DNA of 64,000 bases from Reclinomonas americana ATCC 50394 (taxonomy: Eukaryota), in contig PS015299.1 in NCBI GenBank assembly GCA_048213135.1, forward strand, positions 91,987 to 155,986, written 5' to 3'. Positions 37,493 to 61,134 of the stretch are shown here, piece by piece. The stretch's first letter is position 1, and each line of letters starts with the position of its first letter. The position numbers and the translations under genes are program-made. The notes under the pieces are model-generated. The model was not told the origin of the DNA. It ran no database searches and saw nothing but the letters and a program-made list of their open reading frames with translations.

Positions 37493-38015
37493 ATGTCGGT
37501 GAGTTGTATTGATTATGTGGGGGACGCTTGTTGTTCGCTTGCTTCTCTCTGTCTTCTCTCTCTCTCATCGCTTGTCACTCACTGCCCTGTGTGTGTCGCA
37601 GTTCTCTGTGAATGTGAGTGCGGCGCATGATTCATTGCTGTCGGTGGTGGTCGAGGGCATGTCGGCCATCGCCACTCTCGCGGACTTGCCGTGCGAGATG
37701 AGCGGAGATGAGAAGGTTGATGTGGATACATCAGAGAGGAGTGATTTGAAGGATGTACATGTGATGAAGTCGGACTGTTTGAGGGCGAACACGTCAGTTG
37801 CCGTTCGTGAGGTCAAGTCGTCAAGGTTTGTGTGTGTCTGGCAAGATGCGCTCGTGTACATGAACAGTGGGCTCACGAGGTTTGTCACCACTAGGATCCC
37901 AGTCTGTTTGTCCGGTGCGTGTGTCTCAGACTGCGCCGAATTTCGTCTTGGTGCTGTCGCCCGCTCGGCGTCCAGCAGTTTGAAAACAGCAGTGCCAGTG
38001 GCTGGAGTCAGGTGA
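37493..38015 (+). pseudogene. 5' stub of the NLR-like family (Met-Ser exon plus first third of the ubiquitin-like exon), then unrelated sequence
   Basis: AAGATGTCG|GTGAGT ... CAG|TTCTCTGTGAATGTG as in copies 2 and 3. FSVNVSAAHDSLLSVVVEGMSAIATLADL then loses similarity at ~37700. Confidence 0.75.
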
Positions 38016-38743
38016 GGATCCGGAAAGCGCTTCTTGTTCCGCGATCCTATTCTCTCGTCAGTGTGGTCATTGGCGAGCTGCGTTCGTCGGAGNNNNNNNN
38101 NNNNNNNNNNNNNNNNNNNNNNNNNNNNNNNNNNNNNNNNNNNNNNNNNNNNNNNNNNNNNNNNNNNNNNNNNNNNNNNNNNNNNNNNNNNNNNNNNNNN
38201 NNNNNNNNNNNNNNNNNNNNNNNNNNNNNNNNNNNNNNNNNNNNNNNNNNNNNNNNNNNNNNNNNNNNNNNNNNNNNNNNNNNNNNNNNNNNNNNNNNNN
38301 NNNNNNNNNNNNNNNNNNNNNNNNNNNNNNNNNNNNNNNNNNNNNNNNNNNNNNNNNNNNNNNNNNNNNNNNNNNNNNNNNNNNNNNNNNNNNNNNNNNN
38401 NNNNNNNNNNNNNNNNNNNNNNNNNNNNNNNNNNNNNNNNNNNNNNNNNNNNNNNNNNNNNNNNNNNNNNNNNNNNNNNNNNNNNNNNNNNNNNNNNNNN
38501 NNNNNNNNNNNNNNNNNNNNNNNNNNNNNNNNNNNNNNNNNNNNNNNNNNNNNNNNNNNNNNNNNNNNNNNNNNNNNNNNNNNNNNNNNNNNNNNNNNNN
38601 NNNNNNNTGAGAGTGAGAGAGAGAATGAGAGAGAATGAGAGTGAGAGAGAGAGAGAGAATGAGAGTGAGAGAGAGAGAGAGAGAGAATGAGAGAGAACGA
38701 GAGTGAGAGAGAGAGAGAGAGCTGAAGATATTGATTGGATCAC

Positions 38744-56861: not shown

Positions 56862-59800
56862 ATGTCGGTGAGTTGTATTGATTGCGTGGGGGACGCTTGT
56901 TGTTCGCACGCTTCTCTCGTTCTTCTCTCTCTCATCGCTTGTCGCTCACTGTCCTTGTTTTTGTCACAGTTCTCTGTGAATGTAAGTGCGGCGCATGATT
57001 CATCGCTGTCGGTGGTGGTGGAGGGCATGTCAGCCATGTCCACTCTCGCGGACTTGCTGCGCGAGGCCACAAGCTTGCTGCGTGAGAAGAGTGGAGATGG
57101 GGAGATGGAGATTGTGGGAGTGGAGAAGCCTGCTCCATACAGCATTGAGTTGATGAGTGCGGCCCCACTCATTGGACTCGGCATCAACTCATCCACGCAC
57201 CTTGTTGTCCGTCTGACACTTGGCGTGGCGCCGCAGTCGAAGGGAGGGAGTGGAAGCGAGAGTGGAAGGTATGTGTTTGATTCATCTCTCAGCGAAAATC
57301 ATGCATCTCACTCGCATGTCTTCGCACAGCAACTCGGCGCGTGTGACTCGGTTTGCTTGCTTGCCTTTGTCATCCGCCCCTCTCCTCTCTGTTTTTCACT
57401 CGTTGCGAGTCTGTGCTGACAGTATTTGCATTCTTACACAGCATGATCAACTCACAACGCATCAACATGGCCTTTGAGGTGGTGGAGGAGGCCGTGCGTC
57501 AGCGCTGTCAATGCGCACTGGCGCAGTTCAGTCGTGATCATCCCGACTTTGATGTGCGGGCGTGGGCGTGGATGCAGTGACCGTGAAGGCGTGGTGTGAG
57601 TGTCATGCTCCACCCCACCCCTCTCGAGTCAAGTTGTATGAGTAGAAGCAGCCGGTGGTGGTGTTGGCCTGGCGTGCCGCCTTTGACGCCGACCCGTCGT
57701 CCGACCCTCTCTGTGACGGATTCGATACGACAGCACTCCACTCAATCATGCTGTATGGCGGCTTCGTTCACAATGATGGTCGCAAGCTGCTGTTGATTGA
57801 CGATGCTGATGAACGGAAGGCGGTGGAGGAACTTCGTGATGCACGGAACGAGTTTGCGCACGGTTCAGTGTCTTGGATGGATGTCTCGGTGCAGGAGCAT
57901 CTCGGTGACGGTGGTGTCTTCCTCTCCATCCTCTCTCGACTGCAGCTCACCGATGATGAGCGTGCTCGATTATCTGCTCGTATCTGTGAGGCACGTCACG
58001 CACGACATATTGTGGATACATTTGAGGAACGCCTGCATCGCCTGGCCGTGCGCGAGCTCTCTTTCTACCAGCATGACGAGAGTGTGCGTAAGGACATGCA
58101 GATGTATGTGCCACTGCTGTGCTCACGCGATCGTGACGTCTCGTCGAGAGACAAGATGACCGATCTGTTTTCGGAGGTGGTTGCTTTCCTCTCGGACGCC
58201 AACACCACCCAACGTGTGCTGGTGCTGTTTGGCAACAGTGGCGCCGGCAAGACCACCACACTGTCGATGCTGGCCGAGCGAGCGTGGCGACAGTGGCAGA
58301 CAAGAGTGAGCAGACGTGTGCCTGTGCGTGTGCCTCTTGGTTCCCTGCGAAATGCCGATGAGCGGCTGCTGGAGGAGGCACTCGAGCGACTGTCGCCCGA
58401 ATTGGGATTCAGTGAGTCGGATGTGCGACGGTTGAAGGAGGAGCCACTGCTGTTATTGCTTGACGGGTACGATGAGTTGTACCGTGCTGTGAATCTGTTT
58501 GTCAAGAATCAGCTGGATGTGTGTCGTGATGTGAAGGTGATTATCACCTGTCGAGGCGATTATGCGCTGACGGCACTGGGTAGTGTGGCGCAGTATCGAC
58601 GGTACTTTGCACCAGTGGATGCACGAGGACAGTTATGCATGCAGCAGCTGATGGAGCGACACATTGCACCGTTCAACAAGAAGCAGATTGTGGAGTACTT
58701 TGTGAGATTGGTGCAAGTTGGCGGTGATGACGGTGAAGTGCGATGGCCGACTGCCGAGGAGTACATTCGTGCATTGGAGAGTGTTCAAGGACTGGATGCA
58801 CTGGTGTCGAATCCGTTCCTGCTGGCAGTGGTGGCCCGCGTATTGCCGCAGTTGGTAGCAAGTGGTGTAGAGCGACCGACGCGGCGTGATGTGTTTGACC
58901 GGTTCATTCGACAGTGGATCGAGAGGGAGCAGGAGAGGCAGACGCGTCTCGGTGCGGATCGTGTGCCGAGTGAAGAGACGTGTCTCTCATTCTGTGAGGG
59001 ACTGGCACGGTTGATGCATGAGAGGAATGTGGTTCGTGCAGTTTCAGAACAGTGGGCGTCCGAGGAAGACATTGCCGAGTTTGGTGGTGCGCCACTCGCC
59101 TTGAAACAAGTGGAAGAGGGACCGTTTGACAAGTTCCTCTCTCACAAGAACCAGCATGTGCGAGTGTGCTGTCCGATTGTGCGACGGTATGGCACGACGC
59201 AGTGGGGTTTCGTGCATCTGTCGTTGCTGGAGCATTGTGTGGCACGACATGTGTTTGCGTGGGAGACGTGGGATGAAGAGAGGCGGTTGACGATGCAAGA
59301 TGTGCAGCGGCATGTGTTGGCAGTGCGATTGCTGAATGATCGACCTTCGTTGGTGGAGCAGATGGCCGAGGTGGTGCGACGATCTCCTCGGTTGCAAGCG
59401 AGACTGTGGGAGGTGATTGAGTTGTCGCGTGAGGTGGACGAGGAGCGAGTAGTGACGGCAGCGGCGAATGCAGCAACGGTGTTGTGTGTGGCACAGGTGT
59501 CGTTTAGTGGACGAGATCTGTCGGGTGTGCGAGTGAGGGGTGCGGATTTTAGGGATGCGGTGATGCACAGGACGGTTTGGAGGGGAGCGGACTTGCGAGG
59601 GGTGAATGTGTGTATGGCGTTTGCGAGGGAGGCGGATTTCAGGGGGGCGGATGTAACGGATGCGGAGTGGCCGAGGAAGCCGCTGGAAGGACACACAGAT
59701 TGGGTGCGTGCAGTGGCAGTGACACCCGATGGCCAGCACAATGTGAGTGGCAGTGATGACAAGACTGTACGGGTGTGGTCGGTGGCAAGTGGCGAGGAGG

Positions 59801-61134
59801 TGCGCCGACTGGAAGGCCACACGAGCGTGGTGTGTGCAGTGGCAGTGACTCCGGATGGCCAGCACATCGTGAGTGGCAGTGAGGACATGACTGTGCGGGT
59901 GTGGTCGGTAGCAAGTGGCGAGGAGGTGCGCCGACTAGAAGGCCATACGGGTTGGGTGAATGCAGTGGCTATGACTCCCGATGGCCAGCGCATTGTGAGT
60001 GGCAGTGATGACAAGACTGTACGGGTGTGGTCTGTGGCAAGTGGTGAGGAAGTGCGCCGACTGGAAGGGCACACGAGTTTGGTGTATGCAGTGGCGATGA
60101 CACGCGATGGTCAGCACATTGTGAGTGGCAGTGCAGACAAGACTGTACGGGTGTGGTCGGTGGCAGGTGGCGAGGAGGTGCGCCGACTGGAAGGCCACAC
60201 GTTGCCGGTGCAGGCAGTGGCAGTGACACCCGATGGCCAGCACATTGTGAGTGGCAGTGGGGACAAGACTGTGCGGGTGTGGTCGGTGGCAGGTGGCGAG
60301 GAGGTGCGCCGACTGGAAGGCCACACAGATAGGGTAATGGCAGTGGCCGTGACACCCGGTGGCCAGCACATTGTGAGTGGCAGTGCAGACGAGACTGTGC
60401 GGGTTTGGTCGGTGGCAAGTGGCGAGGAGGTGCGCCGACTGGAGGGACATACGGATGCAGTCTATGCAGTGGCAGTGAGACCAGATGGCCAGCACATTGT
60501 GAGTGGCAGTGCTGACAAGACTGTACGAGTGTGGTCGGTGGCAAGTGGCGAGGAGGTGCACCGACTGGAAGGCCACGCGCGTGTGGTGAATGCGGTTGCA
60601 ATGACACCCGATGGCCAGCACATTGTGAGTGGCAGTGCTGACATGACTGTACGGGTGTGGTCGGTGGCAAGTGGCGAGGAGGTGCGCCGACTGGAGGGCC
60701 ACACGACTGGGGTGTCTGCAGTGGCAGTGGCACCCGATGGCAAGCACATTGTGAGTGGTAGTGCTGACAAGACTGTGCGTGTGTGGTCGGTGGCAAGTGG
60801 CGAGGAGGTGCGCCGACTGGAGGGCCACACGACTGGGGTGTCTGCAGTGGCAGTGACACCCGATGGCAAGCGCGTTGTGAGTGGCAGTGCTGACAAGACT
60901 GTACGGGTGTGGTCGGTGACGAGTGGTGAGGAAGTGCGCCAACTGGAAGGCCACACGACTGGGGTGTCGGCAGTGGCAGTGGCACCCGATGGCAAGCACA
61001 TTGTGAGTGGCAGTGCTGACAAGACTGTGCGTGTGTGGTCGGTGGCAAGTGGCGAGGAGGTGCGCCGTCATGAAGGACTGCTCGAGCGCATTCTAGGCTC
61101 CTTCCTGCCTGATTTCACCGATTTAGTTCTGTGA
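56862..61134 (+). pseudogene. NLR-like copy 3: frameshifting deletion and stops early in the HEPN region; downstream 1159-codon HEPN-core/NACHT/pentapeptide/11xWD40 frame is open
   Basis: Exons 56862-56867, 56970-57268 and 57442 onward. A ~22-nt deletion after DVRAW gives TGA at 57578-57580; there is also a TAG at 57643-57645. RNEFAH at 57844-57861; ORF 57655-61134 is intact. Confidence 0.82.
59683..61070 (+). repeat. 126-bp WD40 repeat array of copy 3 (11 units; last three nearly identical)
   Basis: GHTTGVSAVAV(A/T)PDGK occurs three times at the array end. Confidence 0.95.

Follow-up and report, generated by a model that had tools for sequence, protein, structure and literature searches.

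The window analysed here, a stretch of 64,000 nucleotides (nt) of Reclinomonas americana ATCC 50394 (contig PS015299.1 of assembly GCA_048213135.1, positions 91,987 to 155,986 of the forward strand), carries a tandem array of three paralogous genes and a 5' stub, all on the + strand between 37.5 and 61.1 kb. The array is real, and in each paralog (copies 1 to 3, from 5' to 3') the parts come in the same order: a candidate ubiquitin-like exon, a helical head of about 175 amino acids (aa) with an RNxxxH motif, a NACHT ATPase, pentapeptide repeats and WD40 units of 42 aa. We read these genes, with a probability of about 0.6, as NOD-like receptor (NLR)-like STAND receptors of the NACHT-pentapeptide-WD40 type, in which the effector slot would be filled by a divergent HEPN domain of the Swt1 type, preceded by the small ubiquitin-like exon.

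The body of the receptors belongs to a described family, the NACHT-pentapeptide-WD40 proteins. In Pfam the NACHT domain reaches 33.5, 31.8 and 40.9 bits in the three copies, all above the cut-off of 26.7, and the Walker A (GNSGAGKT) and Walker B (LLLLLDGYDE) motifs can be read in each of them. The domain lies at 40443-40931 in copy 1 (P-loop from 40461) and at 58213-58701 in copy 3 (P-loop from 58231), and the Pfam match in copy 2 covers 50101-50448, with the P-loop at 50116-50139 and Walker B downstream. The pentapeptide repeats, located at 41730-41912, 51358-51546 and 59488-59676 in copies 1, 2 and 3, also score above the Pfam cut-off in all three. Moreover, a search with residues 230-700 of copy 2 returned 86 protein matches at E ≤ 0.001 (23-34% identity, mostly over 90-100% coverage), which come from Mortierellaceae fungi (Mortierella, Linnemannia), from Mycoavidus/Glomeribacter endobacteria and from metagenomes. 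NOD-like receptors with NACHT, pentapeptide repeats (PPR) and WD40 have been reported as common to Mortierellomycota and Mycoavidus (Ciach et al., PMC11291939). That the proteins are receptors of the STAND/NLR type, built of a NACHT core with repeats as the sensor, as originally predicted, is therefore supported by the Pfam matches to NACHT, by very strong WD40 matches and by the homologs of the body. Ahead of the P-loop, the two best relatives of the body carry a protein kinase (6e-52) and a TIR_2 domain (7.8e-11), and a third carries TPR; the N-terminal position is therefore the variable effector slot of the family. These two best relatives (P0005 and P0006) are metagenome or read-assembly proteins, so the same NACHT-pentapeptide-WD40 chassis carries interchangeable effectors outside Mortierella and Mycoavidus as well.

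In the window this slot holds the helical head, which spans 39678-40202 in copy 1 and 49312-49860 in copy 2. The motifs GLDATAL, GLDIGDL and GFDTTAL are found in copies 1, 2 and 3, followed by RNKLRH (40074-40091), RNTLAH (49723-49740) and RNEFAH (57844-57861), and the helix with the D-x3-L motif of copy 2 is encoded near 49585-49605. As originally noticed, D-x-x-x-L and an invariant RNxxxH are present in all three paralogs while the rest of the domain diverges: D93, L97, R138, N139 and H143 are invariant in the three-way alignment, in which the domain is 63% identical, and the pairwise identity between the heads is 53-68%. A HEPN active site has been defined as Rx4-6H with a polar residue (N, D or H, usually Asn) directly after the Arg (PMC3710099), and all three heads have Asn at this position. 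When the isolated cores of the heads were compared with the 24,736 families of Pfam, HEPN_Swt1, a family already named in the original prediction, was the sole match of copy 1 (E 0.045, 14.5 bits) and the top match of copy 3 (E 0.0089, 16.7 bits), where it is centred on the motif, and the only other row among the cores was HEPN_RiboL-PSP. Consistent with this, HEPN_Swt1 and HEPN_DZIP3 clusters are the best matches in the ESM Atlas (0.79 each, with 170 features shared between the head and the HEPN_DZIP3 cluster), and the ten best named matches all belong to one family or clan, which we take as a lead only.

Additional support comes from bacterial members of the Swt1-type family PF18731, of which a set of 12 domains was collected, with a match in 13 of 401 genomes. 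The Swt1-type domains fetched from bacteria have an LD-x3-L helix and an RN-x-W-A-H motif in common with the heads in the window. The bacterial domains show two types of motif, RN-x-W-A-H with the LD-x3-L helix and R-x2-I-A-H-C, and only the first resembles the window heads; several of the bacterial domains are encoded at the beginning of open frames that span 1,000-1,200 residues. In a profile-profile comparison with hhalign, the three-sequence core matched the 12 bacterial domains over 60 columns (score 26.1, P 0.0011), and the match runs from the D-x3-L helix through the RNxxxH motif. None of 300 column shuffles reached this score (mean 12.4, standard deviation 2.4, maximum 21.0), and the reversed alignment gave 15.7. 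Five combinations of template and query were used, with shuffling in one of them, and the other four gave P values of 0.0027, 0.0063, 0.0076 and 0.015. Furthermore, the three heads align in register with 29 sequences of the Swt1 family in MAFFT, where only the His of the motif is invariant throughout and the Arg almost so. Addition of 120 further Swt1 proteins, 106 of which are of the RxxIAH subtype, did not improve the match to the heads. A weak PADLOC match (Hp2, E 0.0054, 13.4 bits) starts at the RNxxxH motif and covers residues 136-205 of copy 2 (49717-49926), and it could not be interpreted; apart from this row, the NCBIfam and PADLOC scans gave only P-loop and pentapeptide matches.

Several results weigh against a HEPN assignment. 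No HEPN profile reaches its curated cut-off in Pfam, the best score being 16.7 bits versus 27.5; the core of copy 2 has no Pfam match at all, and PF18738, the DZIP3/hRUL138-like HEPN, appears for none of the cores at E ≤ 10, in a search whose HMMER filters drop most weak matches. A hidden Markov model built from 132 Swt1 sequences gives the window heads only 0.5-2.5 bits, and the probabilities that hhalign attaches to its matches are low (3-21%). No relative of the head was found at E ≤ 0.001 among 1,835,955,588 representative proteins, nor among 4,740 candidates sharing words with it, and a profile search against the PDB returned one row at chance level (E 1.2). AlphaFold2 run on the paralogs alone failed, with a predicted local distance difference test score (pLDDT) of 39.1. 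A mixed alignment gave a pLDDT of 72.9 and a predicted template modelling score of 0.63, with R133-H138 placed where helix 120-137 ends; this alignment, however, contained Swt1 HEPN sequences, so the model is not independent and is in effect a homology model. With this model Foldseek found nothing at E ≤ 0.001, its best rows being Csm6 at 0.71 and 1.2. VIA-align superposed it on the C-terminal domain of yeast Swt1 (4pqz; Z 5.8, root-mean-square deviation 3.7, 111 residues), and among the 50 matches listed there were also Csm6, AbiF, the HEPN domain of sacsin (3o10, Z 5.4), MtlR and 2hsb, together with HepS and 1ufb, which we presume to be HEPN proteins too. All these Z values are at or below 6.2, a range common for helical bundles in which unrelated helical proteins score alike, and unrelated proteins occupy the first two rows.

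An alternative is that the body is NLR-like as described and the head is not a catalytic HEPN but another helical bundle, acting as an adaptor, as a killer domain that targets membranes in the manner of fungal NLRs, or as an RNA-binding module that does not cleave. For this explanation speak the HEPN matches that all stay under the curated thresholds, the failed paralog-only model, the lack of sequence relatives in the searches above, and the fact that unrelated helical proteins share the Z range of the HEPN matches, including the N-terminal bundle of MLKL (Z 4.7). A catalytically inactive head would also have precedent, since some of the HEPN domains in the Swt1 family are thought to be inactive (PMC3710099). 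On the other hand, it would have to account for the fact that of all Pfam families none but HEPN ones match the isolated cores, that the profile-profile match takes in both the D-x3-L helix and RNxxxH and beats every shuffle, and that R, N and H are invariant in copies whose heads have diverged so far. We thus regard a head that is not a catalytic HEPN as rather unlikely, and consider it quite probable that the head adopts a HEPN fold. A HEPN domain of the Swt1-like kind is the most likely identity, supported and unproven. The HEPN assignment in the original prediction therefore stands in part: the motif, the sub-threshold HEPN_Swt1 match, the hhalign comparison and the ESM Atlas agree with it, while the matches remain below the curated cut-offs and the confident model is not independent. 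Likewise, of the Swt1-like and DZIP3-like resemblance that it proposed to look for in profile and fold, a sub-threshold Swt1 profile match was obtained, whereas Foldseek gave no significant match and the model from the paralogs alone failed.

The exon structure is clearest in copy 2 (48711-52599), which is the sole copy that reads through in the assembly. About 200 nt upstream of each of three large + strand reading frames (39624-43364, 49195-52599 and 57655-61134) lies a conserved frame of about 96 codons; this small exon is shared by all copies, and the stub has it too. In copy 2, exon 1 (48711-48716) consists of ATG TCG and is followed by an intron of 100 nt; exon 2 (48817-49109) encodes the ubiquitin-like candidate and a Gly/Ser-rich linker and is followed by an intron of 177 nt (49110-49286); and exon 3 (49287-52599) encodes the remainder. 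Both introns are of the GT..AG type, and the joined exons form one frame of 1,203 codons plus a stop codon, with no internal stop, exactly as the exon model first proposed had it. The phase between exons 2 and 3 is preserved in copies 1 and 3 despite intron lengths of 172 and 173 nt. In copy 1 the ubiquitin-like exon (39182-39480, 299 nt) retains the acceptor CAG and the donor GTGTGT and is followed by the main exon at 39653-44602, and in copy 3 an exon of the same length (56970-57268) is followed by the GT..AG intron of 173 nt and the main exon at 57442-61134. Alignment of the four 5' regions at the DNA level showed a single indel, of 6 nt, in the ubiquitin-like exon, whereas the introns have indels whose lengths are not divisible by three; this speaks for a genuine coding exon that splicing joins to the rest. 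Three small DNA sequencing runs share 6-13% of the sampled words, and no RNA run was listed as sharing them; four RNA runs bearing the same species label had no read on 48500-51600, which carries no weight as a test of expression. A tail of about 20 residues, LLER-x-LGSF-x-PDFTDLV, is common to all three copies after the WD40 units (44546-44599, 52543-52596 and 61078-61131). It has no family match, and in copy 1 it is situated downstream of a stop codon and a frameshift.

The array had been described as three full-length paralogs and a stub. The three paralogs and the stub are indeed there, but full length holds for copy 2 only, and with copies 1 and 3 broken the description is too generous for this assembly; that two of three copies are interrupted also counts against the proposed reading. 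In copy 1 the main exon is broken by a CAG-to-TAG change at 43362-43364, inside an otherwise regular WD40 unit, and by a deletion of 1 nt near 43640-43667, where one unit of 125 nt stands among units of 126 nt and the frame shifts; the conserved tail is retained. This copy has no ATG-TCG mini-exon, since the sequence found upstream bears no relation to that of the other copies. In copy 3 the head domain is broken by the loss of 22 nt after 57566 and by a TAG at 57643-57645, and the open frame covers 57655-61134. The stub (37493-38015) retains the mini-exon (ATG-TCG, 37493-37498), intron 1 and roughly the first 30 codons of exon 2, which begins at 37602 and is 46% identical to the exon of copy 2; beyond these codons the sequence diverges, and an assembly gap follows at 38093-38607. 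The window is part of a eukaryotic draft scaffold and contains seven runs of N (3065-3591, 17958-18415, 24471-24943, 26732-27644, 38093-38607, 53749-53768 and 54850-54869), so some of the lesions could be assembly errors. The run at 38093-38607, between the stub and copy 1, may conceal sequence.

Alternatively, the array could be a duplication in decay that has largely lost its function, or in part an artefact of assembling a repeat-rich draft, with nothing in it working today. For this speak the nonsense codon, frameshift and missing exon 1 of copy 1, the deletion and nonsense codon of copy 3, the truncated stub and the seven N runs. However, copy 2 is uninterrupted across two GT-AG introns, and the indels of the ubiquitin-like exon come in multiples of three where those of the introns do not. 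Moreover, every pair of copies shows purifying selection, the head included. The ratio of nonsynonymous to synonymous substitution rates (dN/dS) is 0.10-0.16 in NACHT and 0.17-0.20 in the helical part, with synonymous divergence (dS) of about 0.3-0.45 in both, 0.26-0.37 in the head (dS 0.8-1.25) and 0.41-0.62 in WD40. We therefore hold this alternative to be very unlikely. In the NACHT, helical and pentapeptide parts (40440-41900 and its counterparts) dS is 0.15-0.47, and in the head (39678-40320 and its counterparts) it reaches two to three times this value, which suggests either gene conversion over the 3' part or older heads that were kept separately.

That the small exon upstream of the head encodes a ubiquitin-like domain is plausible and unproven. 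By eye, the pattern of its translation, strand-strand-helix-strand followed by hydrophobic-R-L-x-L-G, resembles ubiquitin. In the ESM Atlas the named clusters listed are all of the ubiquitin or Rad60-SLD family (0.87-0.90), which is a lead only, and 25 of the 30 matches are unnamed clusters. None of the three exon translations matched any Pfam family at E ≤ 10, and comparison with PDB sequences gave no meaningful match.

At the other end of the proteins, the WD40 units differ strongly in number. Each large frame carries 7-11 WD40 stretches; copy 2 has seven units, followed by the tail (LLERILGSF..., from 52543) and the stop codon (51562-52599), copy 3 has 11 after its pentapeptide repeats, also followed by the tail, and copy 1 has about 20 units of 126 nt (41925-44560) when the units beyond its lesions are counted. 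The 126-nt units are 80-91% identical in DNA, both within and between copies, and the 31 complete units of 42 aa have a mean pairwise identity of 79%. The variation is concentrated at five of the 42 positions, with an entropy of 2.1-3.4 bits versus at most 1.1 at the others. Three of these sites follow directly after the GH dipeptide and two lie in the SGSxDx turn, and we take all five to face the top of the propeller.

On this basis the following working can be proposed. A ligand would bind the top face of the WD40 propeller, where the five hypervariable positions of each unit would lie, and its binding would free the NACHT module for ATP binding and oligomerisation. Oligomerisation would in turn bring the HEPN heads together, and their paired R-x4-H sites would form an active, metal-independent ribonuclease (RNase), whose cleavage of RNA would halt translation or kill the cell, as a defence against an invader or in self/non-self recognition. 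The RNase may be regulated or tethered by the candidate ubiquitin-like header in front of it. The trigger could be conspecific non-self rather than a pathogen, with the same mechanism serving allorecognition as in fungal HET-E/NWD proteins, and the combination of conserved WD40 units, few hypervariable positions and unit numbers of 7, 11 and about 20 is the pattern of the Podospora nwd/het genes (PMC4986451). The same repeat pattern is expected of pathogen sensors, and the window is silent on mating or cell fusion; in addition, no HET domain was matched by Pfam in any copy at E ≤ 1. An allorecognition role is thus distinctly unlikely in our estimate. A more far-reaching proposal, which we put forward tentatively and with less than even confidence, is that the heads form an orphan, catalytically competent subfamily of HEPN RNases with a ubiquitin-like header grafted onto a bacterial-type NACHT-pentapeptide-WD40 body, in a eukaryote that is neither animal nor fungus. 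An NLR that fires an RNase would then have been assembled independently for a third time, with a hypervariable propeller as a sensor that evolves through shuffling of its repeats and with the header as a built-in regulator of the RNase.

The window also has coding pieces divided over frames by low-complexity spacers. At 93-1858 (+), exon-like pieces separated in this way have sub-threshold HEAT/TOG matches, to CLASP_N, XMAP215_CLASP_TOG and a CEP104-like TOG domain (E 2e-4 to 2e-3), and they probably belong to a gene for a TOG-domain microtubule regulator. At 18680-19540 (-), a homeodomain match lies slightly under the Pfam cut-off (21.6 versus 22.9 bits, E 2e-4).

Combinations of HEPN with NACHT are known from several groups. 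In oysters and cnidarians a DZIP3/hRUL138-like HEPN stands before NACHT and has undergone lineage-specific expansions (PMC3710099, PMC9646362); the pearl oyster has more than 50 NACHT proteins with HEPN, some of them with WD40 or TPR (PMC9646362), and a CXorf38-type HEPN of the Abi2/Swt1 group is joined to NACHT in cephalochordates and cnidarians (PMC3710099). These animal proteins resemble the genes of the window in the N-terminal Rx4H HEPN with Asn after the Arg, in its position before NACHT, in the C-terminal WD40, TPR or LRR that they sometimes carry and in their tandem expansions (PMC3710099, PMC9646362), and the CXorf38 type belongs to the same Abi2/Swt1 group as the best match of the window head. 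They differ in that the window head is above neither Pfam threshold (PF18731 is sub-threshold) and has no sequence relatives in our searches, that the body in the window is of the bacterial and Mortierella NACHT-pentapeptide-WD40 type, and that a candidate ubiquitin-like exon precedes the head. The Mortierellomycota and Mycoavidus proteins (PMC11291939) share the domain order and are clearly homologous over the NACHT, helical and pentapeptide parts. However, according to the precomputed Pfam annotation of the relatives listed, their heads are Arm-like repeats, kinase, TIR, TPR or metallophosphoesterase domains, and none of 90 proteins compared carries a head like that of the window. In bacteria, HEPN is among the enzymatic effectors fused to phage-protective NACHT/STAND sensors (bioRxiv 10.1101/2022.07.19.500537; PMC3710099; PMC8195603). 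The bacterial Swt1-type HEPN domains have the LD-x3-L helix and RN-x3-H in common with the window heads, whereas the window genes are eukaryotic, contain introns and have the candidate ubiquitin-like header, and direct search found no bacterial protein similar to the head.

Two further comparisons concern parts of the architecture. The NWD/HET-E proteins of Podospora also combine NACHT with internally conserved WD40 units, few hypervariable positions and a variable number of units, but their units are about 85% identical in amino-acid sequence (PMC4986451) versus the mean of 79% in the window, and the window genes have a pentapeptide linker and neither a HET nor another fungal head. Vertebrate sacsin, a giant chaperone-like protein, also unites a ubiquitin-like domain with a HEPN domain (PMC3710099, Table 1), but one stands at each end of it and it has no NACHT. 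The words HEPN and RNase do not occur in the main text of the survey of fungal NLR heads by Dyrka et al. The complete order of ubiquitin-like, HEPN, NACHT, pentapeptide and WD40 parts was not found in the literature on HEPN-NACHT proteins, NACHT-pentapeptide-WD40 proteins and fungal NLRs, the supplementary tables of which may list further HEPN-NLR architectures, including those of protists. The novelty suspected at first has therefore to be narrowed, since HEPN-NACHT with or without WD40, TPR or LRR, HEPN-STAND and the body family have all been described, while the candidate ubiquitin-like header, the orphan head and a host outside the described groups are unreported in the literature considered. 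What is new here is the combination on this receptor body, the candidate ubiquitin-like header and a head that direct search does not link to other proteins.

If the head belongs to a HEPN lineage that lies beyond the reach of direct sequence search, such heads may be under-counted in surveys of eukaryotic NLRs. If it is an active HEPN, a design of sensor repeats, NACHT switch and RNase effector, known from oysters, cnidarians, cephalochordates and bacteria, would have been assembled again in another eukaryotic lineage, here on a receptor body that, in its other occurrences, seems to be of bacterial origin. The array would then offer a compact system, contained in a single polypeptide, for the switch from NLR oligomerisation to HEPN RNase and for the contribution that a ubiquitin-like header may make to it.

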